A stretch of 35,920 nucleotides of DNA from an uncultured Candidatus Saccharibacteria bacterium (GCA_964551495.1 CAZKCA010000006.1:1-35920), one strand, 5' to 3'. Positions 1,796 to 26,826 are shown, counted from the first letter of the stretch. Numbers and translations: made by a program. Notes: a model not told the origin generated them from the letters alone.

Positions 1796-2974
1796 TTATT
1801 TATCATCAAGTCTTAAGTTTCCTTTGGCGATTATTTCTGTTTTTGATTTAAGTATTTTTGGGTCGAGTAAATATTTTATAAACCCAGCAAAAGCTATCAT
1901 CAGAGCATTATCTCCGGTCATACCGTTTTTTGGTATTGTCATATTTAAACCAGGGAAGTCATGGGAAACCATATCAAAAAAAGATTGTTGTATGAATTCG
2001 TTCGCTACTACACCTCCAGCAATTATAAGATATTTGTAATCTTTTTGAACCAAAGCTTTTTTTGTTTTAGTTAAAAGAACTTCAGTTACCGCATCTTCAA
2101 ATTCTCTGGCTAAACTGATTTTTTTCTCAGGACTTAAGGTTCCTATATCTCTTATGTAATACAATACAGCTGTTTTGATTCCAGAAAAAGAGAAATCAAA
2201 ATCTTGAGAATTTATCATTGGTCTAGGTAGTATCACTGATCTTTCTAAAGAAGTGTTTTTTCTGGCCTCTTTAGCTAACTTAGATATCTCTGGTCCTCCC
2301 GGATAAGGTAATGCAAGCATTCTAGCTACTTTATCAAAAGCTTCTCCTACAGCATCATCTCTTGTTTGTCCTATTATTTTATATTCTCCCCATTTTTCTA
2401 TATCTATAATTTCAGTGTGTCCCCCTGATATAAGTAGAGCAAGAGCAGGGAATTCAATAGGTTTTATGTTTGTGGATTCTCCTAAAACAGAAGTTATATG
2501 TCCTTCCATGTGATTTATTGGTAACACAGGGGTATTCCAAAGTTTTGATAATGCTTTTGCAAAAGAAATACCAACCCATAAAGCTGGCTCAAGTCCTGGT
2601 CCATAAGTTACAGAAATAAAATCTACTTTTGGGTTTTCTACATTTTCAAATATTTCTCTAAAACTTTCATACAAACCCTCCTCTCTGTGGCATATCTGTT
2701 CAATTTCTTGCCATATTTCTTCGGAGTAATATATTTCTGACTCAACAAATAATTCTGCTTGGACTAGAGATTTTTTCAGAAGGGGAGCTAGGTTTTTGGC
2801 GTGTTCTCTTTTAGCTAAGTTTGGATAAACTCCTCCGTATTCAGCATGTATTGCTACTTGAGAATACAAAGCCTCACCCAAAACTTTTACTTTTGGGTTG
2901 TCTAAATCACCGGAAGCTTCTACTATACCCAAAGCTGTTTCGTCGCAAGATGTTTCAATAGATAGTATTTTCAT
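1796..2974 (-). CDS. tsaD: tRNA N6-adenosine threonylcarbamoyltransferase TsaD (Kae1/Gcp family)
   Basis: N-terminus MKILSIETSCDETALGIVE, the INHMEGHI metal motif and IIAGGVVANE near the C-terminus. At 392 aa it is somewhat longer than typical TsaD. Confidence 0.9.
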   Translation of the reverse strand: MKILSIETSCDETALGIVEASGDLDNPKVKVLGEALYSQVAIHAEYGGVYPNLAKREHAKNLAPLLKKSLVQAELFVESEIYYSEEIWQEIEQICHREEGLYESFREIFENVENPKVDFISVTYGPGLEPALWVGISFAKALSKLWNTPVLPINHMEGHITSVLGESTNIKPIEFPALALLISGGHTEIIDIEKWGEYKIIGQTRDDAVGEAFDKVARMLALPYPGGPEISKLAKEARKNTSLERSVILPRPMINSQDFDFSFSGIKTAVLYYIRDIGTLSPEKKISLAREFEDAVTEVLLTKTKKALVQKDYKYLIIAGGVVANEFIQQSFFDMVSHDFPGLNMTIPKNGMTGDNALMIAFAGFIKYLLDPKILKSKTEIIAKGNLRLDDK

Positions 2975-2976
2975 AG

Positions 2977-3050
2977 TGCGCGTTGAGGAACTCGAATCCC
3001 CGGCCTTCTCAACGTCAATGAGACGCTCTAACCAACTGAGCTAAACGCGC
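2977..3050 (-). tRNA. tRNA-Val (anticodon GAC)
   Basis: Hand-folded cloverleaf on the minus strand: GCGCGTT / AACGCGC acceptor, GCTC/GAGC D-stem, TCTCA-TTGACGT-TGAGA anticodon arm, GGGGA-TTCGAGT-TCCTC T-arm. No CCA is encoded. The tsaD ATG starts 2 nt after the discriminator. Confidence 0.9.
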
Positions 3051-3111
3051 ATTAACACTCTAAAAGTACCAGATTTCGGGTTATTTTGCTAGTGGGTATT
3101 TTCTAATATAC

Positions 3112-3140
3112 TTGCAAGATTTGCTATTTTTTGGTATAAT
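3112..3140 (+). promoter_or_regulatory. Sigma70-like promoter for ORF 3163
   Basis: TTGCAA, 17-nt spacer, TATAAT. AAGGAG RBS at 3151-3156. Confidence 0.6.
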
Positions 3141-3162
3141 ATAGAGTAGAAAGGAGTTTAGC

Positions 3163-3669
3163 ATGTCGTATTTTGCGGTAGGTTACATTCATGGAGGAGA
3201 CGTTGAGGATATGTTAACTTTTTGTGATTTGATCTCTGGAAGTAGAAAGCCGTACCACGCGTATTTTCTAGAGCAAGAACTCTTGAACATAGTACAGTTG
3301 TGGCCAGTATTTCTTCATCAGATGGAGGTTATTGATATTCTGAAGTCTAGTTACAGAAAATCTTTACGGAAACATAGGAAGTTGAAATCTATTGGACCAG
3401 TACCAAATCAAATTCGTAGCTTTGGCCCTGCTTTCAAAATGTTGAGATACAGACCGAATAATTTTAAAACCATAATTACTCTGGATATGAATAAAACACC
3501 GGCGCTTATCTCAGTTCAGGGACACTCTCAAAAAATTGTACATGAACTTGCTAAAAAGGTGGGTATAGGACCAATTTTTGAAGTTAAAGATGACAGTGTT
3601 TTACTTCCAAGTGAAATGCTGGATCTTCAATTCTCTGTTGGTAAGATTTTGCAAATTATTGGTAAGTAG
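3163..3669 (+). CDS. Hypothetical protein (168 aa), no recognisable motif
   Basis: Good promoter and AAGGAG RBS 6 nt before the ATG. Visibly higher GC than neighbouring genes. Lies between tRNA-Val and the tRNA-Glu tail elements. Confidence 0.55.
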   Translation: MSYFAVGYIHGGDVEDMLTFCDLISGSRKPYHAYFLEQELLNIVQLWPVFLHQMEVIDILKSSYRKSLRKHRKLKSIGPVPNQIRSFGPAFKMLRYRPNNFKTIITLDMNKTPALISVQGHSQKIVHELAKKVGIGPIFEVKDDSVLLPSEMLDLQFSVGKILQIIGK

Positions 3670-3819
3670 TTGGATCAACATAAAAAACACTCTTGGGATG
3701 TAAATGATTACAAAACAAGAGTAAGGATCCGCATTAATTTTTAATAGCGGAGTCAAAAAGTAACCGTGTCATATTCAAATAGGAATTATGATGCGGTTTT
3801 TGATTTATATAGCGATTGG

Positions 3820-4003
3820 TGACCTTATGGGGAATCTTCCGCGAGTAAAAATTTTCCGTCGAAAATTTTTCTCGTGTCCGCAGCTCGCGACCCGTCGTGT
3901 TCGACGGGTACCCCGCTCCGCTTTTCGATTCCTCACGAAAACCTATAACATAGGTTTTCTGTAGGGTCATGCAAAAATCGCCTTTCGGCGATTCTGCTTT
4001 GCA
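3820..4003 (-). repeat. tRNA-tail element Glu-2 (CGGAGC...GGTCGCGAG core type), ending in a degenerate third copy of the tRNA-Glu tail
   Basis: Minus-strand order is as follows. First a 15-bp perfect palindrome containing the tRNA tail (3961-3975 / 3998-4012). Then hairpin GAAAACCTATGTTATAGGTTTTC, then GAGGAATCGAA (inverted T-loop), then AAGCGGAGCGGGGTA. Then the CCCGTCG-AACA-CGACGGG hairpin, TCGCGAGCTGCGGACACGAG and the AAAAATTTTC-GACG-GAAAATTTTT hairpin. It ends in GATTCCCCATAAGGTCA (3820-3836, 2 mismatches to the tRNA-Glu tail). Confidence 0.75.
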
Positions 4004-4125
4004 TGACCCTACGGGGAATCGAACCTTACAGGATCAGTACCCCGATTGAGATATTTTATTTCGCAGGCTCATAAAATATCTCAATCGGGCTTCGATTCCC
4101 CAGACTTTTTTACTTCATAAAAATG
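4004..4125 (-). repeat. tRNA-tail element Glu-1 (long AT-hairpin type), ending in an exact 22-nt copy of the tRNA-Glu tail
   Basis: tgaccctacggggaatcgaacc occurs at 4004-4025 and inside tRNA-Glu at 4126-4147. The interior carries GGGGAATCGAAG (inverted T-loop), a 19-bp hairpin CCCGATTGAGATATTTTAT / ATAAAATATCTCAATCGGG, then GTACTGATCCTGTAA. Confidence 0.8.
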
Positions 4126-4197
4126 TGACCCTACGGGGAATCGAACCCCGATTACCGCCTTGAAAAGGCGATGTCCTAACCGTTAGACGATAGGGCC
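4126..4197 (-). tRNA. tRNA-Glu (anticodon TTC)
   Basis: GGCCCTA/TAGGGTC acceptor, TCGCC-TTTTCAA-GGCGG anticodon arm, CGGGG-TTCGATT-CCCCG T-arm. No CCA encoded. Confidence 0.9.
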
Positions 4198-4264
4198 TAC
4201 AACCGCAACATTTTAACATTTTTCTATAAAAATGCAAAAGAAATATAAGTATTACAATATGTCA

Positions 4265-4293
4265 TTGACAAATTTACTTAAATATGATAATAT
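4265..4293 (+). promoter_or_regulatory. Sigma70-like promoter for small ORF 4310
   Basis: TTGACA, 17-nt spacer, TAATAT. GGAGGG follows at 4301-4306. Confidence 0.6.
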
Positions 4294-4309
4294 TAGTGTA
4301 GGAGGGTGT

Positions 4310-4486
4310 ATGCAGGATTATACTGCTTATGCGCGTACTCAGTGTGATTATTTGTACGCACTGACTAAAGCAGGATTTTCTATCCGGGACATTCAAAAGA
4401 TGTCTCCGGAGGAACGGGTTGAGCTCGGCCGACAAGCCTTGCTCGACGAACAGTCCGCCCGCGACGGGCAAAAAAATCCGTCGTGA
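4310..4486 (+). CDS. Small hypothetical protein (58 aa from the internal ATG; the ORF track starts at 4232)
   Basis: GGAGGG RBS just upstream of the ATG at 4310, while the promoter lies inside the longer ORF. A hairpin+T-tract terminator overlaps the stop codon. GC-rich 3' half. Start and central motif (MQDYTAYAR..., MSPEERVEL) resemble ORF 7800. Confidence 0.45.
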   Translation: MQDYTAYARTQCDYLYALTKAGFSIRDIQKMSPEERVELGRQALLDEQSARDGQKNPS

Positions 4487-4594
4487 GGCGGATTTTATTT
4501 TAAAAAATAAACCCACCCAGAATCAATATCTTAACTAGTAAGCATGGGGTCGCACATTTTGTGTGGCCTTTTCTTTTCTGTTACAATTAGAAAA

Positions 4595-5206
4595 ATGAGA
4601 AACTATATTATTATTGGAGTTTTGGTTATTTTCGCTTTGGGGGTTTATTTTTTCTCAAACTCAAGTCCTATAATAAAAAACTACCCTCCAAAAAATGATA
4701 CTATTGTAGCCTTTGGGGACAGTCTGGTTAGGGGAGTTGGAGCAACAAATGGAGAAGGTTTTGTTTTCCTTTTGTCTCAGAAAATTGGAAAACCAATAAT
4801 AAACTTGGGTGTTTCTGGAGACACTACCGCAGAAGGTTTGGCTAGAATAAGCAATGTCACAAAAAGAAATCCGGGGACAGTTCTGGTGTTGCTTGGGGGT
4901 AATGATTATTTGAAAAAAGTTCCCCAAGAGGAAACATTTGAAAATTTGAGAGAGATAATAACTAAACTTCAATCAAATGGTGCTATGGTTGTTTTGCTTG
5001 GCGTGCGCGGGGGAGTTTTGTCTGATAAGTTTGGAAATGATTTTCAATCTTTAGCTAGAGAAACAGGTTCAGTTTATGTGCCAGATGTTTTGGATGGCAT
5101 AATTACAAATAGATCACTTATGTATGATACTGTTCATCCAAACGATAAAGGCTATGCTCTTATAGCAGAAAAGGTCTACGAAAGGGTAGCAAAATACATA
5201 AGGTAA
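4595..5206 (+). CDS. SGNH/GDSL-family hydrolase, membrane-anchored or secreted
   Basis: Blocks AFGDSL, GGNDY and DTVHPN, plus an N-terminal hydrophobic helix. The start is ambiguous (4544 or 4595). Confidence 0.75.
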   Translation: MRNYIIIGVLVIFALGVYFFSNSSPIIKNYPPKNDTIVAFGDSLVRGVGATNGEGFVFLLSQKIGKPIINLGVSGDTTAEGLARISNVTKRNPGTVLVLLGGNDYLKKVPQEETFENLREIITKLQSNGAMVVLLGVRGGVLSDKFGNDFQSLARETGSVYVPDVLDGIITNRSLMYDTVHPNDKGYALIAEKVYERVAKYIR

Positions 5207-6130
5207 CTACTTAGTTTTTAAGTGTATATAGATGTCTTCTAGAGCTCTTACAGCATCTCCGGATGCTATGTTGTTTTGGTGGTAAAGAGCGTCTGTGCAG
5301 TCTCCTGCGGCCCAAATACCAGGTGTTTTGGTTTGCTGGGTTCTTGGGTCTATAGGGATCTGATTTAACTCATTTAAATCTATGACATTTTTTGCAAAAT
5401 AAGTAGTAGGCAAAAGTCCAATCTCTACAAAAATTCCAGGAGTTTCTATAAAATGTTCTTCTTTTGTAATTGCATCTTCATACACTATACCTGTAACAAA
5501 TTTTTCTCCTTTTATTTCTTTTGGAACAGCATTTTTAATTATTTTAAAGTTAGGATTTTCTGAAAGTTTTGATACTGTGATTTCATCACCTTTGAGTTTG
5601 TCACTTCTGTTTAGTAGAGTAACACTTTTGCAATAAGCCAAAAGTTGAGCTGCGCTTTCCAAGGCTGCGTTGCCTCCTCCTATAACCACGACATCTTGCC
5701 CACTAAAAAGAGGACCGTCGCAAGAGGCACAATAGGTAACACCTTTGTTATCAAACTCTTTTGCTCCTGGAATGTCTAATTTTCTTCTATAACTTCCTGT
5801 GGCGATTAGTATTGTTTTTGTAGGGTAATTTGATTTATTTGTTTTAACTTCAAAACCTTCATCCTTTTTTGAAATATCTTCCACTAGTTCACCTTCTTTG
5901 ATGTCTACATATTCTCCAGAATAGGCTCTAAGGTGGGCTTCTAGACTTTTGGCCAGATCGTTACCAGAGATTTTTATTGTTCCAATCCAATTTTCTATAC
6001 CCTCAGAAACTACACTTTGACCACCAAAATCTCCAGTTATTAAAGCAGTTTTTAATTGTTTTCTGGCAGCATAAACTCCAGCTGAAACTCCGGCAGGTCC
6101 ACCACCAATAATTATAAGGTCGTATATCAT
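5207..6130 (-). CDS. trxB: Thioredoxin-disulfide reductase
   Basis: IIGGGPAG and GGGNAA dinucleotide folds, redox-active CASCDG, 307 aa. Confidence 0.9.
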   Translation of the reverse strand: MIYDLIIIGGGPAGVSAGVYAARKQLKTALITGDFGGQSVVSEGIENWIGTIKISGNDLAKSLEAHLRAYSGEYVDIKEGELVEDISKKDEGFEVKTNKSNYPTKTILIATGSYRRKLDIPGAKEFDNKGVTYCASCDGPLFSGQDVVVIGGGNAALESAAQLLAYCKSVTLLNRSDKLKGDEITVSKLSENPNFKIIKNAVPKEIKGEKFVTGIVYEDAITKEEHFIETPGIFVEIGLLPTTYFAKNVIDLNELNQIPIDPRTQQTKTPGIWAAGDCTDALYHQNNIASGDAVRALEDIYIHLKTK

Positions 6131-6202
6131 AGTGCGATAATTATAACAGAATAAGAAATATTTCCAAAAACAAGTGACAATTAAAAAAATAACAGTGAGA
6201 AG

Positions 6203-6285
6203 CGCCAGCCGGAGACACTGTCTGAGCGAAGCGAGTTTGGCGGGAGGTCAGCTTCGAGTGCTTTATTTCACAAAAACCGAGGACG
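6203..6285. repeat. GC-rich 83-nt intergenic repeat, copy A (inverted partner at 18052-18134)
   Basis: About 88% identical by hand count to the reverse complement of 18052-18134; the first 48 nt differ at 2 positions. Lies in the trxB-ftsZ spacer. Confidence 0.85.
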
Positions 6286-18801: not shown

Positions 18802-20090
18802 AAGGAATGAGTAATTTTCAAATTGGACTAATGGTTATCTTCGGCGCATCTTTAGTGATTGGTCTTTTTGTGTTTGCCACCCAAAGAAGTAGTTTTGGAG
18901 AAGATTCAGCTTCTGTTTTGATTTGGGGAACTCTTCCTCAGGAAACTTTTGATACTGTTTACAAGGCTTCTAGTATTTCAAAAAATAAAAAAGTTTTAGT
19001 TTCTTATGTCAGAAAGGATCCAGCAGATTTTGATACTGATTTCGTAGAAGCTTTGGCAGACGGTAGGGGTCCAGATGTGGTTATTTTAAGACACGATTCT
19101 GTTTATACTCATAGAAATAGAATTTTCCCGATACCATACAGGAGTTTTAGTGAAAGAAATTTCAAGGACATTTTTATTGAAAATGGTGAAATATTTTTAG
19201 GACCTGAGGGTATAGTAGCCTTTCCGTTTATAGTAGATCCTTTGGTTATGTATTGGAACAGAGATATGTTCTCAAACAATCTCGTAGTCAACCCCCCAAG
19301 ATTTTGGGATGAATTTTACCCTCTTATAGAAAAGATAACCAGAAAAGATTCTTCTGGAAATGTTATGCAGAGTGCTATTGCTTTTGGAGAGTGGAGAAAT
19401 GTCACAAATGCCAAAAGTATTGTTTCTCTTCTTTTTATTCAGGCGGGTACACCGATTGTTTCTGTAGAAGCTGGAGAATATAGATCTGTGTTGGCTTCTC
19501 AATTTGATTATCCTGTTGCTCCAGCTCAGTCTTCTTTGAATTTCTATACCCAATTTTCCAACCCAACATCTGTGAATTATAGCTGGAATAGATCACTACC
19601 TTCTTCGCAAAACTTTTTCCTTTCTTCAAATTTAGCTACTTATATTGGTTTTGCTAGTGAAATATTTTCTTTACAACAAAAAAACCCAAACCTAAACTTT
19701 GATGTAACTTATGTTCCTCAGATACGATCTGCAGAAAATAGAACAAATTTTGCCAATCTGTATGGACTTTCTGTTGTTAGGCAATCAAAAAACATAGCAG
19801 CCGCATTTTCGGTTGTTACTTCTTTGGTAGAACCAGCATCACTAAAAGCTCTAGAAACAAAAACAAACTTACCACCTGTAAGAAGAGATTTGCTTGCGGA
19901 TAAGCCAACAGACGCCTATAGATCTGTATTTTATGACTCTGCTCTGGTTAGTAGATCTTGGATAGATCCAAGTCCAACAGACACCTCAGAAATATTTAGA
20001 ACAATGGTGGAATCAGTTACATCTGGTCAAGCCAGAATATCTGAATCATTAAACAGAGCAAATAGTTCTTTGGATAATTTATTTAGATAA
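18798..20090 (+). CDS. Membrane-anchored extracellular solute-binding-protein-like protein
   Basis: N-terminal TM anchor. DPLVMYWNRDMF resembles the family-1 SBP motif. Start overlaps the methyltransferase stop (ATGA). Confidence 0.45.
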   Translation: MKGMSNFQIGLMVIFGASLVIGLFVFATQRSSFGEDSASVLIWGTLPQETFDTVYKASSISKNKKVLVSYVRKDPADFDTDFVEALADGRGPDVVILRHDSVYTHRNRIFPIPYRSFSERNFKDIFIENGEIFLGPEGIVAFPFIVDPLVMYWNRDMFSNNLVVNPPRFWDEFYPLIEKITRKDSSGNVMQSAIAFGEWRNVTNAKSIVSLLFIQAGTPIVSVEAGEYRSVLASQFDYPVAPAQSSLNFYTQFSNPTSVNYSWNRSLPSSQNFFLSSNLATYIGFASEIFSLQQKNPNLNFDVTYVPQIRSAENRTNFANLYGLSVVRQSKNIAAAFSVVTSLVEPASLKALETKTNLPPVRRDLLADKPTDAYRSVFYDSALVSRSWIDPSPTDTSEIFRTMVESVTSGQARISESLNRANSSLDNLFR

Positions 20091-20093
20091 TTT

Positions 20094-20522
20094 ATGAAAA
20101 AAACCTTAATACATTCATTAATAATTTTTAGCTTAGCTTTCTTTGCTTTAACTTCTGTATCATTTGCTCAATCAGGTATAGAAGGTAACCAGCCTCCAGC
20201 TACACCAAGCGAAACTTCTGGCTATAGAGGGGTCATCCCTAATTGTCAGGGAAACACTTGTACTTGGAATGATATTATTAAGACAATAGATTATCTTGTT
20301 GATTTGGCTATGGGTATTGCTCTTGTATTTTCTTCGGCAGTTATAGCTTTTGCTGGATTTAAATATATGTCTTCCGGAGACAATCCAGGCAAGAGAAAAG
20401 AGGCAAATACAATGCTTCAAAAAGTTGTTATTGGAATTGTTTTGGTTATGGGTGCTTGGGTAATAGTTAATTTAATATTTACAGCTTTAGGTGCAGATCA
20501 GTCCATAAGATTTGCAATATAA
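20094..20522 (+). CDS. VirB2/TrbC-like (T4SS-type) pilin-family small membrane protein, paralog 1 of 6
   Basis: Signal peptide ending FAQ, then two hydrophobic helices joined by the FKYMSSGDNPGKRKE loop. Confidence 0.55.
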   Translation: MKKTLIHSLIIFSLAFFALTSVSFAQSGIEGNQPPATPSETSGYRGVIPNCQGNTCTWNDIIKTIDYLVDLAMGIALVFSSAVIAFAGFKYMSSGDNPGKRKEANTMLQKVVIGIVLVMGAWVIVNLIFTALGADQSIRFAI

Positions 20523-20526
20523 AAAT

Positions 20527-20946
20527 ATGAAAAAAACTTTAATACATTCATTAATAATTTTTAGCCTAGCTTTCTTTGCTTTAACTTCTGTATCATTTGC
20601 TCAATCAGGTATAGAAGGTAACCAGCCTCCAGCTACACCGAGTACTCCGAGCAATAATACGAGTTATGATATAAAAATAACAAACCCTTTGAAGGTGGGG
20701 GATAAGCTTACGGACATAATAGTGGCTGTTTTAAATAATGTTGTTATGCCTATAGCAGCAGTGGCAGCTGTGCTCTATATAATCTTGGCTGGTTTCAAAT
20801 ACGTTTCTGCCAGAGGTAACCCTGCCAAGATACAGAGTGCTCATCAAAATCTATTATGGGCGCTAGTTGGAACTGGTATTTTGTTAGGTGCAGCTGGTAT
20901 TTCTAGGGTTTTACAAAATACAGTAAATCAGTTTTTAATAAATTAA
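20527..20946 (+). CDS. VirB2/TrbC-like pilin-family protein, paralog 2
   Basis: True start at MKKTLIHS. The first 120 nt are nearly identical to paralog 1. Helix-loop-helix GFKYVSARGNPAKIQ. Confidence 0.55.
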   Translation: MKKTLIHSLIIFSLAFFALTSVSFAQSGIEGNQPPATPSTPSNNTSYDIKITNPLKVGDKLTDIIVAVLNNVVMPIAAVAAVLYIILAGFKYVSARGNPAKIQSAHQNLLWALVGTGILLGAAGISRVLQNTVNQFLIN

Positions 20947-20951
20947 TATTT

Positions 20952-21341
20952 ATGAAATATTTATTAAAATTATCTATATTTTTAATACCATCTTTTACTT
21001 TAGCTTTTTCCTTAGGAGGAGATAGTACTTTTAAAAACGTTATTTTTGAAATTGTAAGTATACTAGAACTGGCTTTACCTCTTTTATTTGGGGGTGCCCT
21101 GATTATTTTCTTTTGGGGATTATCAAAATTTGTTATAAATTCTGACAATGAGACTGAATTAAAAAAAGGCAAAAACTATATGCTCTGGGGCATTTTGGCT
21201 TTGTTTATATTAATTTCTTACAGAACAATTGTTGGTTTGGTAGTCAGAGATTTGGAATTTGGTGATGGAAATACTATTCCTCAGCTTCCAACAGGAGGAA
21301 ATGTAGAGAGTGTTAATAGTAATATAAATTTTAATCCTTAA
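20952..21341 (+). CDS. VirB2/TrbC-like pilin-family protein, paralog 3
   Basis: Signal peptide; FFWGLSKFVINSDNETELKKGKNYMLWGILALFIL. Confidence 0.55.
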   Translation: MKYLLKLSIFLIPSFTLAFSLGGDSTFKNVIFEIVSILELALPLLFGGALIIFFWGLSKFVINSDNETELKKGKNYMLWGILALFILISYRTIVGLVVRDLEFGDGNTIPQLPTGGNVESVNSNINFNP

Positions 21342-21344
21342 GAT

Positions 21345-21728
21345 ATGAAAAAAATATATAAAAATATAATTATATTATTAGTATTGTTTCCAAGTTTTTC
21401 TTTTGCTGCTTTAGATGGTCTCAAAGGGCTTATGAGTGAGTCTTTGGGTTTGTTAAATCTAGGTATAAGGATTATTTTTGCATTAGCTTTAGTTTTATTT
21501 TTCTGGGGTCTTGTCCAATTTATAATGAAGTCAGGGGATGCTAAATTACGAGATGAAGGTAAAAAAAGGATGATCTGGGGTATAATCGCTTTGTTTGTAA
21601 TGGTTTCTATATACGGAATATTAAACTTTGTTGGAAGTTTAGTTGGCATAAATCCAAATTCATCTGGGTCTCTAGAAGTTTGTCCTCCTGGTACTATCAA
21701 TGCTGGAGGCACTGGTCCTTGTGATTAA
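21345..21728 (+). CDS. VirB2/TrbC-like pilin-family protein, paralog 4
   Basis: Signal peptide; FFWGLVQFIMKSGDAKLRDEGKKRMIWGIIALFVMVSIYG. Confidence 0.55.
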   Translation: MKKIYKNIIILLVLFPSFSFAALDGLKGLMSESLGLLNLGIRIIFALALVLFFWGLVQFIMKSGDAKLRDEGKKRMIWGIIALFVMVSIYGILNFVGSLVGINPNSSGSLEVCPPGTINAGGTGPCD

Positions 21729-21828
21729 TTATCCACATTTTCTTGTATTTTAGCCAAATTTATACTATAATTTGGAGGTAGTTATTCGGTCGTTAGTTTT
21801 ATTAAAATATTTTAATAATTATAAAATA

Positions 21829-22182
21829 ATGAAGAAATTTATTTACACTGCTTTGTCTTTGTCACCTATGTTGGCTTTGGCACAAGAAGGAAACCTTGGT
21901 GGAGTTGAAAGATTGGTTAGACAATTTGGAGATATCCTAAATAGTCTTGTTATTCCAATATTGTTTGCTATTGCTATCATTTACTTCTTCTGGGGTCTTG
22001 TAAAATACATCAAGTCTGCAGGAGATCCAAAGGCAGCAGCTGAGGGAAGATCTATAATGATCTGGGGTATAATAGCTCTAGTTGTTATGGTTTCTGTTTA
22101 TGGTCTTATAGCTTGGGTTCAAAGTGCTTTTGGAATCCAAGGTGGAGCTACACCTACTCTTCCTACAGTTCCAGGTCTATAA
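21829..22182 (+). CDS. VirB2/TrbC-like pilin-family protein, paralog 5
   Basis: Start at MKKFIYTALS (the track starts at 21772). FFWGLVKYIKSAGDPKAAAEGRSIMIWGIIALVVMVSVYG. Confidence 0.55.
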   Translation: MKKFIYTALSLSPMLALAQEGNLGGVERLVRQFGDILNSLVIPILFAIAIIYFFWGLVKYIKSAGDPKAAAEGRSIMIWGIIALVVMVSVYGLIAWVQSAFGIQGGATPTLPTVPGL

Positions 22183-22194
22183 TAGCAGTATTTT

Positions 22195-22470
22195 ATGATT
22201 ACCATTGCTCCTTTCTTAAATAAAGTAAACGCTTTTATAATAAACCCTCTTATATATCTTTTGTTTGTTGTATCATTTGTTTACTTTGCCTACGGAGTTT
22301 TCAAATTTCTTACTCTGGACGCTTCTGATGGGAAGAGGATAGAAGCAAGAAATGCTATTTTGTGGGGGATTGTTGGAATGGTAATTATGTTTTCTGTTTT
22401 CGGGCTTATCAGGTTTGTCTTGGACACATTTGGTATAAGTCCATCCGAAGTTAGATATATCGAACTTTAA
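22195..22470 (+). CDS. VirB2/TrbC-like pilin-family protein, paralog 6 (no signal peptide)
   Basis: FAYGVFKFLTLDASDGKRIEARNAILWGIVGMVIMFSVFG shows the same helix-loop-helix. A terminator follows. Confidence 0.5.
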   Translation: MITIAPFLNKVNAFIINPLIYLLFVVSFVYFAYGVFKFLTLDASDGKRIEARNAILWGIVGMVIMFSVFGLIRFVLDTFGISPSEVRYIEL

Positions 22471-22472
22471 TA

Positions 22473-22500
22473 AAAACCGCCTTCGGGCGGTTTTTGTTTT
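22473..22500 (+). terminator. Intrinsic terminator ending the pilin-like array
   Basis: AAACCGCC-ttcg-GGCGGTTT followed by a T-run. Confidence 0.8.
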
Positions 22501-22562
22501 GTGTAAATTTTTGCATAAAAAAACCGCGAGTCTCCCATTGTTAGGGAAAAACTCGCGGTAGT

Positions 22563-23906
22563 CTAGTAAAACTCAATCTTGTATTTTTCTTCTTTTTCGG
22601 TCATCGACCGATATCGAAGAGTTTTGATTTGCTGGTCTCGGATTTTTGCTCGGCCAGCTTTTTTGGGATCAAGTTCAATAACCTGATCCCCATTTATTTC
22701 AATCTGGGTAATTTCTTGCCCTAGACGATCGGAAGAGAAATTCCGACCATTAACCTCAATTGTTTCAGACCATTTTCCACCTGTTGGGGCGGTGATGATC
22801 AGTGTTTCCTTTGCCACTACCGGAGCGGTTGCTTCGGTAGAAGCTTTCCAGGCCGTCAGACCTGTTTGGTTATAGAGGTAGAGTGCTGCGAGGAAGTTTC
22901 CTTCCTCGGCTTCAGGATTGATATCCTTTATCTGGACATCATTTCCAAACCCGTTGACCTTGCGGTCAGGGTAGGCTGATACCTCCCTATACCATGAAGT
23001 CAGGTTGATTTGGTGTAAGCCTCGGTCGTTGCAGTTAATTCTGCCAACCAGGGCTTGCGAGCCATCGGATTCGAGATGGTTGTATTGAGACTCTCGTTCG
23101 ATGATCTTCATCATCTGTTCAAGATCCTCTTTGCTTTTGGCATGTTTGGACCAGAATTCTCTAGCCTTTTTTTCTCCCTCGGCGTTTGGGCCAGGGATAG
23201 GGCCGAGATTTCCAATTTCAGGACAGTCCGTTGGTGACGGCCGTCCAGAGGTTGCTTTTAGGTCCTCCGTGTTTGGTGGCGGATTAAGCCACGGGTCAAT
23301 CCATAGATTGAACACAAGGCCTGCCAGGGCAGCCCATATAACTGCATTACCAAACCCTGTGAGGACGTTTTCTTTTTTGCCTCGTTCCACCTTTTCTTCC
23401 CGAAGGAAGAGGTAGGCTAAGGCAATTGCCACTTGAGTAAAAACCGTCCACCAGTTTAGGATGTACTCTTTGTATCCCCACGTATCGTGGAAGAAAACAG
23501 CGAGCACTAAGTGTGTGAGCCCCAGTCCAACTAGTGGCTTCCAAACCTTTTTCCAGGTTTTAGTCAACCAGGATTCTCTATTTGGGTCTGGAGGATTTTT
23601 GATTATCTTTTTTCTCCATCTGATGAATAAAAATCCACCAATAGGGAGAAGAATTGATAGGACTAACACTGTCCACCACAACCATACTGGCATACCAGCA
23701 TCTAACTTTTGCAAGTAGACAAAGGTTTTCAGAATAGTTGTTGTTGTTAAGTAAAGGGCAATGACCACTAACACCAAAATGGTAATTGTGACCAAAGTTA
23801 TTCCAAGAGTTTTACCAATCAGACCAAGGGTCTTTTTGGTCGGTTTGACTGATGACAAGAAGTTGTCAATCAAATCGAAGGGTTTTTTTAACCAATCCCA
23901 GTTCAC
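22563..23906 (-). CDS. Polytopic membrane protein with a C-terminal lytic-transglycosylase (SLT)-like domain
   Basis: About 6 N-terminal TM helices. IIERESQYNH...DRGLHQIN...AALYLYNQTG fits the SLT E-S ... GLxQI ... Y..G pattern. GC is clearly above the window background. A minus-strand terminator lies at 22523-22559. Confidence 0.5.
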   Translation of the reverse strand: MNWDWLKKPFDLIDNFLSSVKPTKKTLGLIGKTLGITLVTITILVLVVIALYLTTTTILKTFVYLQKLDAGMPVWLWWTVLVLSILLPIGGFLFIRWRKKIIKNPPDPNRESWLTKTWKKVWKPLVGLGLTHLVLAVFFHDTWGYKEYILNWWTVFTQVAIALAYLFLREEKVERGKKENVLTGFGNAVIWAALAGLVFNLWIDPWLNPPPNTEDLKATSGRPSPTDCPEIGNLGPIPGPNAEGEKKAREFWSKHAKSKEDLEQMMKIIERESQYNHLESDGSQALVGRINCNDRGLHQINLTSWYREVSAYPDRKVNGFGNDVQIKDINPEAEEGNFLAALYLYNQTGLTAWKASTEATAPVVAKETLIITAPTGGKWSETIEVNGRNFSSDRLGQEITQIEINGDQVIELDPKKAGRAKIRDQQIKTLRYRSMTEKEEKYKIEFY

Positions 23907-25048
23907 TTCTTTCCTCCTTCTGTTGGTAGTCCGATTTGGACCCCTGTCCCTCCTGCTACGTATGTGGTTAGTTTACCTACTGCTTCTGCATTGATCTCTG
24001 CTACAACTGTAGCCGTAGCAAGTCTCAACGCTTCAGGGGCAGGCATACCACCTTTAACGTACATTTCCATAAGAGCGGATACTCTTCTTGTTTTAGCTTC
24101 AGCTATCTTCGCAATATATCCTCCTTCTCCATCAGCTTCAGCCAATTTTGCATTAGCTTTTTCTTTTGCGATGCGGGTTGCCTCTAGAGCCTCTTGCATT
24201 TTTTCAGCAGCCTTAGAGATTTCAGGGTCACTGATGTATAGGTGTTTTACTTTTACGCCAAGAGGTTTAAGTCTCAGGTTTAAGTCTTCCATTGCTTCAC
24301 CGAACTTTTCGGTGCCCAATTGTTTATCGGACTTTTCGCCTTTACCTTTATATGTTTCCCAGTCCATTTTAAGAACTTGGTTAGAAATAAAGGTTCCGAT
24401 GATATCGCTGATGGTCTGTAAAAAACCATCACTATATACTTCAAAGAAAGGTCTGGCATCCTCAACTTCAACAATTGCTGTGCTAAGGATATTGAACCGG
24501 ACCTGATCTTTGGTATCTAGTTCGTGATGATAGGTAGGTCTTGGAAACTCGGCATAGAGTCCGTATTTTTTTACTTTCGATGCTTTGAGTGCACTAGAAA
24601 GTCGGATTTTTTCTTGAGGAGTTTCTTCTGTGTCTTTTCTTACAACTCTGTCTATATAGACAGGTTTTACGTTCCTAAGATAGGGGAGCCCGATCCAGCG
24701 AACACCAAATGTCTTGATTAGCCAAGACTGTATAGATATTTCATTTCTAACTAGATTAGTTAGATTTTCAATTGTAACCTTAGTGTTAACCCTTTTGGGT
24801 TTAAGTTTACCATCTGGTCTTATCTCCTTACCTTTAACATTCCCTACATAATTGATTATAGGGCCGTTTTCCTCATTTCCGGCCACTATGGCTCGGATGA
24901 GGTTGGGTGTCTCATCCACAAACCCAAGACTTCGCCAGAAGCCCCATTTTTCAGAGGATTCCTGTTCCTCTGGTTTTCTGACTAGCAGTCCAGTGATAAC
25001 GATTATCACTGTTGCTATTAATGATAGAGAGGCAAAAAAGATTAACAT
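23903..25048 (-). CDS. Membrane-anchored protein with SPFH/band-7-like features (tentative)
   Basis: N-terminal TM and an Ala/Glu/Lys-rich C-terminal coiled region (EALEATRIAKEKANAKLAEADGEGGYIAKIAEAKTRR). 4-nt overlap with the downstream gene. High GC. Confidence 0.35.
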   Translation of the reverse strand: MLIFFASLSLIATVIIVITGLLVRKPEEQESSEKWGFWRSLGFVDETPNLIRAIVAGNEENGPIINYVGNVKGKEIRPDGKLKPKRVNTKVTIENLTNLVRNEISIQSWLIKTFGVRWIGLPYLRNVKPVYIDRVVRKDTEETPQEKIRLSSALKASKVKKYGLYAEFPRPTYHHELDTKDQVRFNILSTAIVEVEDARPFFEVYSDGFLQTISDIIGTFISNQVLKMDWETYKGKGEKSDKQLGTEKFGEAMEDLNLRLKPLGVKVKHLYISDPEISKAAEKMQEALEATRIAKEKANAKLAEADGEGGYIAKIAEAKTRRVSALMEMYVKGGMPAPEALRLATATVVAEINAEAVGKLTTYVAGGTGVQIGLPTEGGKK

Positions 25049-25128
25049 CTTTTCTCCTTTTCAAGATTGAATTTTCAAGGAACCGACTAGAGGTTTGACC
25101 CTAAAAGCCAGAACCTATTCCGTTATTA

Positions 25129-25529: not shown

Positions 25530-25705
25530 GAATCATGTGGTCAGGAATAAAAAAGGATTCTTCCGTGAGTAAAACTTTACTGTCCGCCTTGTTGTCGAGA
25601 CAGGTCGCAAAATTTTCTCGTGTCCGCAGCTCGCGACCAAGTCTGCTGACTTGGTACCCGCTCCGGTCTGCACATGTAAGAAAAAATCTGGAGCAGTCCA
25701 GATTT
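25530..25705 (-). repeat. tRNA-tail element unit Lys-A (distal), including its hairpin/U-tract module
   Basis: The core GACCGGAGCGGGTACCAAGTCAGCAGACTTGGTCGCGAG is shared with the Trp element. It ends ATTCCTGACC + ACATGATTC. The hairpin at 25681-25705 is identical to 26004-26028 (25 nt). Confidence 0.75.
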
Positions 25706-25815
25706 GAATCGTGTGGTCACAAATAAATTTCTGCTGAAATTTTTCGCGACCCCGGCTTGGCCCGTCGGCCTGCGCCTTGCACATGTAAACAAAAACAGCA
25801 TAACATGCTGTTTTT
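25706..25815 (-). repeat. tRNA-tail element unit Lys-B with its hairpin module
   Basis: ACATGTGCAAGGCGCAG, a GGCC-GACG-GGCC hairpin, GGGGTCGCG, an AAATTTC-AGCAG-AAATTT hairpin, then ATTTGTGACC + ACACGATTC. Preceded by the hairpin AACAGCAT-gtta-TGCTGTT plus T-run. Confidence 0.75.
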
Positions 25816-25894
25816 GAATCATGTGCACCCAGCAGGAATTTCTCCTACAATTTTCTTTCGTCGTCACTCAAGAAAATTCTAGGCGCCAGATTTT
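25816..25894 (-). repeat. tRNA-tail element unit Lys-C (truncated Leu-type unit), ending in a 19-nt exact copy of the tRNA-Lys tail
   Basis: 25819-25837 equals 26035-26053. The 45-nt block aattttctttcgtcgtcactcaagaaaattctaggcgccagattt is identical to the Leu-TAG element. Confidence 0.8.
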
Positions 25895-26029
25895 AATCTT
25901 TGTGGTCACAGATAATTTCCTCGTCGTCACTCGGAAATTTCCGCGACCCCGTCTCGCTTGTTTTGCTTGGTAGCAAAACATAGCTCCGCCTTGCACATGT
26001 ACTAAAAAATCTGGAGCAGTCCAGATTTT
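25895..26029 (-). repeat. tRNA-tail element unit Lys-D (proximal), including its hairpin/U-tract module
   Basis: The hairpin AAAATCTGGACTGCTCCAGATTTTTT follows tRNA-Lys. Then ACATGTGCAAGGCGGAGC, a GTTTTGCT-ACCA-AGCAAAAC hairpin and GCGAGACGGGGTCGCGG. Then an AATTTCC-GAGTGACGACGA-GGAAATT hairpin and ATCTGTGACC + ACAAAGATT. Confidence 0.75.
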
Positions 26030-26039
26030 ATTAGTCATG

Positions 26040-26346: not shown

Positions 26347-26826
26347 TTAAATATTTTTACCAATATTTTTTCCTCTATGTGTAGGTTGAAGACTATGACA
26401 GTTTGGACACAAAATCCTCAAATTTTCTAGTCTATTATCGTACCTATTACCATTTACGTGGTCTAGTTCTAAAGGAATTCTACCGTCTGTCGATATTTTA
26501 GCCCAACCACATTGTTCACATTTTGGCTCTTTTAGTTTAGCTGAAAAAAGTCTTTTTTTCAACTTAAAACTCTGATATGTACTTTTTGAAACTAGAATTT
26601 TATAAAGTGGTATTATTGGATTTTCTCCAAATTTCATACCCTTATTCCATGTCATTCCAGTAAAATGAGAAGTATCTAGGTTATTTTGTTTTACGTATTT
26701 CTTAACTTGTTCGTAGTTTCCACCAGTAGGTTTCAGTCCTAAAAGTTTTATAACATTTCTAATACTTTTAGATTTTTTAACTGCCTTTATGAGCTGATCA
26801 TCTGACCATTTTCTAATTCCACCCAT
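26347..26826 (-). CDS. Free-standing HNH endonuclease (homing-endonuclease-like) with an N-terminal HTH-like domain
   Basis: CEQCGW...LELDHVNGNRYDNRLENLRILCPNCH is the zinc-bound HNH motif. The stop codon lies 1 nt from the tRNA-Leu(TAA) 5' end. Confidence 0.8.
   Translation of the reverse strand: MGGIRKWSDDQLIKAVKKSKSIRNVIKLLGLKPTGGNYEQVKKYVKQNNLDTSHFTGMTWNKGMKFGENPIIPLYKILVSKSTYQSFKLKKRLFSAKLKEPKCEQCGWAKISTDGRIPLELDHVNGNRYDNRLENLRILCPNCHSLQPTHRGKNIGKNI

Follow-up and report, generated by a model that had tools for sequence, protein, structure and literature searches.

Behind the gene for tRNA-Glu(UUC) of an uncultured Candidatus Saccharibacteria bacterium, we found two units of ~100-170 bp that contain no genes and that each end in a copy of the tRNA 3' end. 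Both lie in the window, by which we mean the whole stretch of DNA analysed (35,920 nucleotides; GCA_964551495.1 CAZKCA010000006.1:1-35920). We refer to the unit next to the tRNA as Glu-1 and to the one beyond it as Glu-2. On balance, we believe that positions 3820-4124 hold two miniature integrative elements stacked in tandem, which are site-specific, non-autonomous and devoid of genes, and that these belong to a large family in Patescibacteria. The anatomy of the units, the family, the polymorphic presence or absence of its members, a strand-specific structure that covaries, and antisense arms cognate to the target were all observed.

Each such unit is ordered as a replacement for the 3' end of the target, usually a terminator-like hairpin, an antisense copy of the target that spans the junction, and a structured core, and it closes with the displaced native 3' end. 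For tRNAs, the replacement tail runs from T-loop position 56-60 to the discriminator plus 0-4 nt, and the core is predicted to fold in the gene-sense strand only. Integration would take place in the T-loop; the tRNA would be regenerated from the element's own tail, while the native tail would be pushed to the far side, where it would decay. Because the target is regenerated, further elements could enter at the same place, with the newest next to the tRNA. At tRNA-Glu, Glu-2 would have entered first and Glu-1 later. Movement would presumably be catalysed in trans by a recombinase, and the antisense arm may pair with the tail in a folded single strand, either DNA or RNA, mimicking the target or guiding the element to it.

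Anatomy of the tRNA-Glu locus

The features of the locus are given below from the tRNA outward, with the basis of each in brackets.

4125-4197, minus strand: intact tRNA-Glu(UUC) gene (ARAGORN; Rfam tRNA model, 62.9 bits)
4126-4147, minus strand: proximal tail copy TGACCCTACGGGGAATCGAACC, the last 22 nt of tRNA-Glu (repeat search)
4026-4124, minus strand: Glu-1, presumably the younger unit, subtype B1 (sequence; fold; core copies elsewhere)
4083-4101, minus strand: antisense arm of Glu-1, GGGGAATCGAAGCCCGATT (inverted-repeat pairs)
4041-4089, minus strand: perfect 19-bp hairpin of Glu-1, P1 (inverted-repeat pair)
4024-4040, minus strand: subtype-B signature hairpin GTACTGATCCTGTAAGG, of the form GTACTG..CTGTAAGG (motif in other copies)
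4004-4025, minus strand: middle tail copy, exact in 22 of 22 positions and followed by TGC, not CCA (repeat search)
3961-4012, minus strand: left part of Glu-2, a perfect 15-bp palindrome around a terminator-like hairpin (inverted-repeat pair)
3976-3993, minus strand: hairpin in the palindrome loop, AATCGCC-TTTC-GGCGATT (TTTT after the hairpin in the tRNA sense)
3937-3959, minus strand: small hairpin splitting the antisense tail of Glu-2 into GAAAACCTAT and ATAGGTTTTC (inverted-repeat pair)
3924-3936, minus strand: antisense T stem and T loop of Glu-2, GTGAGGAATCGAA, directly 5' of the core (sequence)
3833-3930, minus strand: structured core of Glu-2, CGGAGC type (cmsearch, model R1)
3817-3836, minus strand: distal tail copy GATTCCCCATAAGGTCA plus CCA (15 of 17 positions match at 3820-3836)

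A first-pass annotation of the sequence had placed exact tails at 4126-4147 and 4004-4025 and a third with 2 mismatches in 17 nt at 3820-3836, and a repeat search bore this out. The perfect 15-bp inverted repeat that it described at 3961-3975 and 3998-4012 was also present, with all 15 positions complementary and with the hairpin at 3976-3993 in its loop. The repeat search returned two further pairs of inverted arms, 4041-4059 with 4071-4089 (19 of 19 complementary) and 4083-4101 with 4135-4153 (18 of 19). By our own estimate, an exact 22-mer repeat inside 700 nt has a chance expectation of ~1e-8, and a perfect 15-bp inverted repeat at such spacing one of ~1e-5 to 1e-4. The tRNA-Glu gene itself encodes no CCA, as CAT directly follows GGGTCA; in the window, CCA stands at 3817-3819, directly after the distal tail copy.

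Read from the tRNA, Glu-1 consists of a 25-nt A/T-rich spacer, the antisense T arm GGGGAATCGAAGCCCGATT, the 19-bp hairpin and GTACTGATCCTGTAAGG. GGGGAATCGAAGCCCGATT is the reverse complement of tRNA positions ~45-64 (18 of 19 match), and P1 has CCCGATT/AATCGGG at its base, similar to tRNA-Glu's variable loop and T stem. The GTACTGATCCTGTAAGG hairpin adjoins the middle tail copy, and its loop, CUGUAAG, looks like an anticodon loop. As a single strand, Glu-1 folds with an energy of -46.6 kcal/mol (z = -5.4 versus shuffled sequences).

In Glu-2, one arm of the palindrome is the tail end plus TGCAAA, and the other is TTTGCA plus the antisense acceptor strand TGACCCTAC; a simple terminator scan did not flag the hairpin at 3976-3993. 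After GTGAGGAATCGAA, the core runs as AAG-CGGAGC, a GC-rich hairpin (3879-3920), GCGAG and an A/T hairpin (3847-3870). The whole unit folds with an energy of -77.7 kcal/mol (z = -7.2 versus shuffled sequences), and in the folds of both units the antisense arm pairs with the tail copy that follows it. If Glu-1 were absent, the sequence adjoining the tail ..GGGTCA would be TGCAAAGCAG; if both units were absent, it would be CCAATCG. The first-pass annotation had called the two elements nested, but they are stacked in tandem, with the newest next to the tRNA.

Repeats of this kind could also be produced by faulty assembly, and a collapsed repeat, together with a lack of empty or intermediate sites in related populations, had been named at the outset as the result that would speak against the elements. 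A Logan contig from SRR12977061 (L001; we label all loci from other sources in this way) is 100% identical to the window over 3979-6226 and spans both exact tail copies, and a Joint Genome Institute (JGI) contig, L003, is 99.5% identical over 2605-4130. Both contigs end inside or beside repeats, as they might if the layout were an artefact. However, the layout is found in these two independent assemblies, and homologous layouts occur in many genomes. Since L001 and L003 reproduce it, the layout is not a collapsed repeat, and we give next to no credence to an assembly artefact, whether collapsed or chimeric. A search with the neighbouring 168-aa open reading frame (ORF) returned only short contigs, one of them near-identical and confirming the layout; a 49%-identical homologue of this ORF was not syntenic.

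The distal tail of L003 matches the tRNA tail exactly (17 of 17), and the two mismatches in the window are therefore recent C>T changes. The window and L003 differ at five places, four of them inside 3812-4049, and one arm of P1 carries a 1-nt deletion in L003. To judge from these alignments, the distal copy and the hairpins drift and the flanking genes do not. The last 26 nt of L003 (1529-1554), directly past the start of the proximal tail, are unrelated to the window; this end is probably an assembly break at the repeat.

A family with structured cores and cognate antisense arms

We built a covariance model, R1, from 65 cores of the type that we call A1, of which 63 came from other genomes and 2 from the window, with Glu-2 excluded. 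Glu-2 nevertheless matched R1 over its full length, with 51.5 bits (E ~1.3e-13), and it has the position of an A1 core, 3' of a same-strand tRNA and followed by a tail copy that starts in the T-loop. Across the window, R1 detected eight cores, each behind a tRNA and on the same strand as it, and a downstream copy of the tRNA's own tail is present at six of the eight window tRNAs (Glu, Leu-UAG, Lys, Leu-UAA, Tyr and Trp). The loop motif GAGTGRCGACGA was seen 5 times in the window versus 0.03 expected, always inside units. The second hairpin of Glu-2 has a GACG loop and not the GAGTGRCGACGA that is usual in the family, and we therefore regard Glu-2 as a loop-reduced variant lineage; the corresponding loops in its homologues are GAGCGACGGCGA (L134) and GCGACGGC (L147).

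When a degenerate 22-nt pattern was scanned against a single genome of each species, at least 117 loci matched; the great majority of these are in Patescibacteria, and we estimate ~35 chance matches. In 62 of the loci listed, which number at least 117, the motif lay 48-260 nt behind a same-strand tRNA, and nearly every isotype was represented. At least 85 copies stand behind tRNAs in Patescibacteria genomes, and three stand at the 3' end of topA. Among the tRNAs of the tRNA-associated pattern loci, a copy of the tail occurred downstream in 41 of 125 and upstream in 1 of 125. The units of the family measure 100-220 bp and contain no genes, and this small size is kept across more than 85 copies.

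One flanking architecture is common to at least three core types. A1 is characterized by CGGAGC; A2 has a long GTCTAC hairpin and a second hairpin in common with A1; and B has a GTACYG..TGTAAKG hairpin. Units also differ in form: long ones have an antisense T-loop, and their tail copy begins within the T-loop, and short ones lie directly after ..CAC and end in ..GACCAC. Glu-1 carries the subtype-B signature GTACYGNNCMTGTAAKG, as do ~19 other copies at a variety of tRNAs, among them the window's Tyr element, and a core near-identical to that of Glu-1 lies behind tRNA-Ser in L063. Like other subtype-B units, Glu-1 (4024-4101) combines an antisense T-loop, a long hairpin, and the GTACYGNNCMTGTAAKG hairpin placed against the tail. 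With Glu-2 matching R1 at 51.5 bits and Glu-1 carrying GTACYGNNCMTGTAAKG, the earlier division of the locus into two subtypes delimited by tail copies holds.

Only the tRNAs matched Rfam at the gathering threshold, and nothing credible fell over the elements at E up to 10. Scans of IMG/VR with patterns for the core motifs gave nothing, or chance matches within coding regions. We found no description of such elements in the literature, which is weak evidence of novelty, and the family is apparently undescribed so far.

The cores are structured in one strand. RNAalifold predicted 22 pairs in the A1 cores, 17 of them with compensatory changes. The gene-sense strand was more stable than its complement in 65 of 65 cores, with mean energies of -34.7 versus -25.6 kcal/mol and 106 versus 36 G-U pairs. 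Outside the core, the small hairpin at 3937-3959 has a changed stem sequence in L134 and L147, yet the pairing is kept and the TGTTA loop is identical.

The antisense arms are specific to their own targets. The exact reverse complement of the T-loop 9-mer of the adjoining tRNA was present in 26 of 59 units, versus 1.3% for non-cognate 9-mers, and this correspondence holds for rare T-loop variants as well. Similarly, an antisense match of 8 nt or more to the final 13 nt of the unit's own tRNA occurs in 28% of units, versus 0.9% of non-cognate pairs. Whichever of the three site classes is considered, the arm crosses the junction by 3-5 nt and is immediately 5' of the core. An inverted tail split by a hairpin, which had been noticed in Glu-2, is thus a feature of the family, and the Tyr element does have the comparable arrangement claimed for it, GACGCCGGAAG-[hairpin]-GTTAGGATTCGAA.

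Conserved folds of this kind raise the possibility that the cores are functional RNAs, of the host or selfish (3' trailers, tRNA-like decoys, or RNAs of a guide or bridge type), for which mobility is secondary and in which tail and antisense arm form the closing helix. The strand-specific, G-U-rich structure, always co-oriented with the target gene, is what one would expect of an RNA, as are the strong covariation and the fold of Glu-2, where antisense and sense tail pair around a multi-branched core. However, the tRNA and the core usually have a terminator-like hairpin between them. Inspection of the units revealed no consistent promoter-like hexamers, and a promoter scan flagged none on the tRNA-sense strand within the Glu elements. 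Three or more unrelated core types have the same flanking architecture, the topA-borne copies have an arm of only 7-9 nt and no likeness to tRNA, and no Rfam family matches. We therefore consider a primary role as RNA quite unlikely.

Given a terminator before the core and the lack of a shared promoter, the folded strand may be either RNA or single-stranded DNA. In our model of integrative elements, the antisense arm would serve as a target mimic or guide that rebuilds the target duplex in this folded strand. A stronger version, which we put forward as a doubtful but specific proposal, is that the units are guide-directed cassettes: the junction-spanning cognate arm would be a programmable guide or splint, and the core a scaffold for a recombinase, of the host or as yet unseen, acting on the folded single strand. 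The targets addressed by the arm would be the tRNA T-loop, the tRNA 3' end, or CAC/AAAAAC in topA, where the slash marks the junction.

Several other units in the collection have features of their own. Behind tRNA-Lys(CUU) of the window (25530-26038, minus strand) is a stack of ~4 units with cores at 25897-25998, 25834-25896 (partial), 25708-25784 and 25557-25675; each unit is bounded by tail remnants of the GGGTGCAC or GTGACCAC type, and terminator hairpins recur. Some units in L019, L026, L045, L085, L101, L151/L152 and L166 have an extra small hairpin at the junction of core and tail, between the GA and TTCC of the T-loop remnant (GA-AAGCGTACTCGCGG-TTC, GAT-GCGTGCCTGTCGTCTGCGACTGGACAC-TTCC). 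Several core types have a recurring GTAC motif close to their right ends. In L031, L067 and L159, a GTAC(T/A)GCTCCTGTAAGG hairpin has conserved surroundings of another kind (..GCAAGACCTTGA..GAAAGGTGTAC..), apparently not near tRNAs, and may be a related structured motif. Cargo lies between tRNA and core in L087 (~0.8 kb; a 73-aa ORF without a Pfam match) and in L096 (~0.9 kb; a DUF5680 ORF and the remnant of a serine recombinase C-terminus).

Insertion states, imported ends and the question of a recombinase

The edges of the repeats are narrowly placed. Of 66 cases, 57 have the left edge of the exact repeat at tRNA positions 55-60, most often at position 56 where the core is A1 and at 59-60 where it is A2, and 54 have the right edge 0-4 nt beyond position 72. 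A comparison of the distal tail for pairing with the 5' acceptor strand was dominated by chance matches at 3-4 mismatches.

To sample tRNA-Glu loci without bias, we took the 31-nt 3' half of the window tRNA-Glu gene as a query against metagenome contigs and obtained 46 loci. About half of them had no tail copy downstream, and the rest had one or more units of various types; in 5 element-free loci, a large serine recombinase gene lay next to the tRNA instead. L134 and L147 have a homologue of Glu-2 directly after tRNA-Glu and no Glu-1, and the left part of this homologue shows at most one difference in 48 nt. L134 and the window are 82% identical in the upstream flank, 100% in the tRNA and 88% in the element, and their downstream flanks are unrelated. 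L134 thus comes from a relative of the window organism and represents the intermediate state, with Glu-2 alone. Unlike units are stacked in tandem elsewhere too, in L092, L079, L113 and L035 and behind the window tRNA-Lys.

The position of CCA distinguishes the native end from the imported ones. CCA also follows the tRNA in tRNA-Glu genes free of miniature elements (L125, L130, L140, L146 and L171). The distal copy is followed by CCA as in these genes, whereas the proximal and middle copies are not, and the distal copy is therefore the displaced native end. The middle copy would then be the replacement tail that Glu-2 brought, displaced in its turn when Glu-1 arrived. In this clade the native tRNA-Glu genes encode CCA and the working gene no longer does so once an insertion is present; such a tRNA-Glu is thus dependent on the CCA-adding enzyme.

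The insertions at topA offer a view of the same process in a protein-coding gene. An A1 core lies at the 3' end of topA in three genomes (L055, L066 and L121). The sequence before it, GTTTTTGTG, is the reverse complement of CAC/AAAAAC in the gene, and after it comes a second copy of the last ~20 topA codons with its own stop. Proximal and distal copies encode the same peptide, and their differences are almost only synonymous: 16 of 22 codons differ synonymously in L121, among them AGA with CGT and CTA with TTG, and the differences in L066 include AGT with TCA. Both copies must therefore have evolved as coding sequence before they became adjacent, so that one was imported. Integrative elements that bring a substitute for the gene end they push aside follow the same logic (PMC4383910).

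An imported copy excludes target-site duplication. On that explanation, the tail copies would be long duplications left by a transposase whose cuts in the two strands lie 14-80 bp from each other, and direct repeats, many of them exact, do surround every unit. The length of the repeat, however, tracks the distance to the gene end, from 14-18 nt at tRNAs to ~60-80 nt at topA, and decay of an untranslated copy cannot yield up to 16 of 22 codon differences that are almost all synonymous. For the family as a whole we regard such duplication as highly improbable.

It is also conceivable that there is no dedicated recombinase and that units spread by DNA uptake and RecA-type homologous recombination, with the tRNA body or the topA coding region as the left arm and the duplicated tail as a short right arm; the elements would then be passengers between portable stretches of homology. 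Two stacked units in L092 share an identical 83-nt block comprising the tail and the left part, the terminators after the newest and the last tail in L079 are nearly alike, 57 of the tail copies found are exact 12-mers, and the units have no accompanying recombinase gene, all as this mode of spread would have it. But it leaves unexplained the first duplication, the T-loop edges (55-60) across isotypes, the covarying strand-specific cores and the cognate antisense arms, and right arms of 14-18 nt are, by general knowledge, very short for RecA. We think it unlikely as a full account, although recombination of this kind could spread existing units inside a population, as L092 and L079 suggest.

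The preferred reading, a stack of site-specific integrative elements, has to contend with several observations. The shared block in L092 is hard to reconcile with independent imports and is a better fit to transfer by homologous recombination within a population. The first-pass annotation had suggested looking for empty or intermediate sites; element-free tRNA-Glu genes and Glu-2 alone (L134, L147) were found, but the metagenome loci contained no exact empty site of the window strain. The sole direct join of the tRNA to CCAATCGAAACT was in L125/L161, where CCAATCGAAACT forms the end of a serine recombinase gene. We saw no excised circle. The repeats at tRNAs fit a crossover in the T-loop and one elsewhere within the repeat equally well, and at topA either copy could be native, as codon usage did not discriminate between them. 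The terminator upstream of the cores argues against their routine transcription. Finally, no unit has coding capacity, no recombinase was found in any unit, and none of the window ORFs tested has a recombinase domain.

We looked for such an enzyme in the surrounding loci. A tblastn search with an E. coli XerD query (sequence approximate) gave one tyrosine-recombinase-like match in ~1.3 Mb of loci, and no integrase was seen next to stacks. Clustering of the ORFs of these loci brought out large serine recombinases of ~505-541 aa (Resolvase, Recombinase and Zn_ribbon_recom), whose genes converge on the 3' ends of tRNA-Glu, -Asn, -His and -Ser:

L124, L125, L137, L157, L161, L061, L020, L171-L175: large serine recombinase loci

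These enzymes have more than 7000 homologues, and those with a source name are from Patescibacteria. The miniature units might accordingly be deletion scars or non-autonomous partners of large serine recombinase islands. Besides the convergence on tRNA 3' ends and the near absence of tyrosine recombinases from the loci, the short-form units point this way, as they end ..GACCAC/A at the same ..CAC/ position, and so does L096, in which a recombinase remnant lies between the tRNA and an A1 core with a tail copy. However, the far ends of the complete islands L171 and L174 lack both a tail copy and an A1 core, an R1 search found no core attributable to the islands, and the left ends of the islands are unlike the left parts of the miniature units. 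A derivation from these islands is in our opinion very unlikely. L096 looks like a composite of two events, and we regard the large serine recombinases as a lead and not as the helper of the miniature units. The islands are ~4 kb long and carry PemK, SocA or helix-turn-helix (HTH) genes, and the last ~19 codons of the tRNA-adjoining recombinases are antisense of the tRNA (..DPTGNRTPITALKRRCPSR).

Other candidates were tried and rejected. A homing guide in the style of TnpB and omega-RNA fails because the occupied allele keeps the target, so that the nuclease would cut its own locus. The differences between copies are not adenine-specific, as those of a diversity-generating retroelement would be, and in a group I or II intron splicing would restore the gene, which is unneeded here as the proximal tail is intact. 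An HNH ORF of the window was considered as a helper and dismissed, having no homologue in any fetched locus.

That HNH ORF encodes a free-standing endonuclease of 159 aa (26347-26826, minus strand) and fills the gap from tRNA-Cys to tRNA-Leu(UAA); tRNA-Cys is one of the two window tRNAs without a tail element. Other ORFs of endonuclease type adjoin tRNA genes in the collected loci. In L174 a GIY-YIG ORF lies just upstream of tRNA-Val, and LAGLIDADG-like ORFs of 184-233 aa (..LYWAEGSK..) lie directly upstream of same-strand tRNA genes, two of them overlapping the first 9-10 nt of the tRNA:

L011, 1139-1693: LAGLIDADG-like ORF
L028, 313-1014: LAGLIDADG-like ORF
L041, 4330-5001: LAGLIDADG-like ORF
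L090, 3675-4346: LAGLIDADG-like ORF

Elsewhere in the window, 20000-25050 holds a run of small signal-peptide ORFs of similar size, which includes two adjacent ORFs (20094-20946) with an identical 40-aa N-terminus, MKKTLIHSLIIFSLAFFALTSVSFAQSGIEGNQPPATPS. GC content rises to 0.41-0.45 at 22-26 kb, adjoining the tRNA cluster, and the 20-26 kb region may be an island.

Known systems and significance

Williams is said to have distinguished, in 2002, the T-loop and the 3' end as sublocations of integration in tRNA genes. The units resemble the tyrosine-integrase islands of tRNA and transfer-messenger RNA (tmRNA) genes, in that the target is split and regenerated, a displaced 3' fragment stands at the far end, stacks form in tandem, and junctions fall in the T-loop or at the extreme 3' end. 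In the Islander report (PMC4383910), tRNA-borne islands restore their target and the displaced fragment marks the ends; likewise, a direct repeat of the tRNA 3' segment is present at both ends of our units, and the tRNA is regenerated. Unlike those islands, the Patescibacteria units are 100-220 bp long and have no integrase and no genes inside, nor room for an ORF. Each also has a stretch antisense to its target and a core that covaries and is strand-specific, and one related core family occupies almost every tRNA isotype as well as topA. Islands of the serine recombinase kind contain the recombinase gene within the element; the miniature units do not, and they do not share their ends with those islands.

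Elements that lack a recombinase are known from other systems. The cis-mobilizable elements (CIMEs) related to integrative and conjugative elements (ICEs) of Streptococcus, and the pseudo-staphylococcal cassette chromosome (pseudo-SCC) elements at rlmH, which lack ccr, are kilobase-sized decay products of identifiable parents. Like our units, they are recombinase-less, have att-type repeats at the 3' end of a conserved gene, occur in tandem and are presumed to be mobilised in trans. In contrast, we found no parent sharing the ends of the Patescibacteria units, and their small size is itself conserved.

Integron cassettes, with their attC sites, and CTX phage are likewise small recombinase-less units beside a fixed site with the newest first, and there too a folded single-strand site is proposed to mimic a duplex, structure is conserved over sequence, and there is strand bias. 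Unlike integrons and Xer-exploiting elements, the units have no IntI gene or dif-like site that we could find nearby, and their anchor is the tRNA T-loop. In further distinction from integron cassettes, they restore the 3' end of the target, and their cores have conserved loop sequences. As to membership among integron cassettes, the likeness goes no further than the analogy of the folded single strand.

MITEs (miniature inverted-repeat transposable elements), as well as the palindrome-associated elements derived from IS200/IS605, are similarly miniature, non-coding, hairpin-rich and present in many copies per genome. MITEs are defined by transposon-derived terminal inverted repeats and a fixed duplication, whereas the units show neither: there is no short target duplication of fixed length, the repeats range from 14 to ~80 nt and vary with the target, the inverted arms are copied from a specific target, and insertion is strictly site- and orientation-specific.

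The units thus bring together three traits that are not known to occur together, namely that the target is regenerated, that one arm is complementary to it, and that the fold is conserved and strand-specific. If they are active, they would form a very abundant class of site-specific mobile cassettes of 100-200 bp in Patescibacteria, given that they occupy 6 of the 8 tRNAs of the window and about a third in the sampled loci. The cassettes give tRNA genes and topA new 3' ends and terminators, and they remove the encoded CCA. They generate pseudo-hits to tRNA fragments and probably break assemblies at tRNA loci, and their stacks record the order of insertion and so could serve as markers of strain-level history.

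With these units, the choice of site by a gene-less element becomes directly testable, and the target rule may be programmable. Were the cassettes in fact guide-directed, retargeting to any gene end would need only a new tail and its antisense copy. They would then be a natural counterpart, free of protein genes, to the logic of attC, CTX or bridge RNA, and considerably more important.

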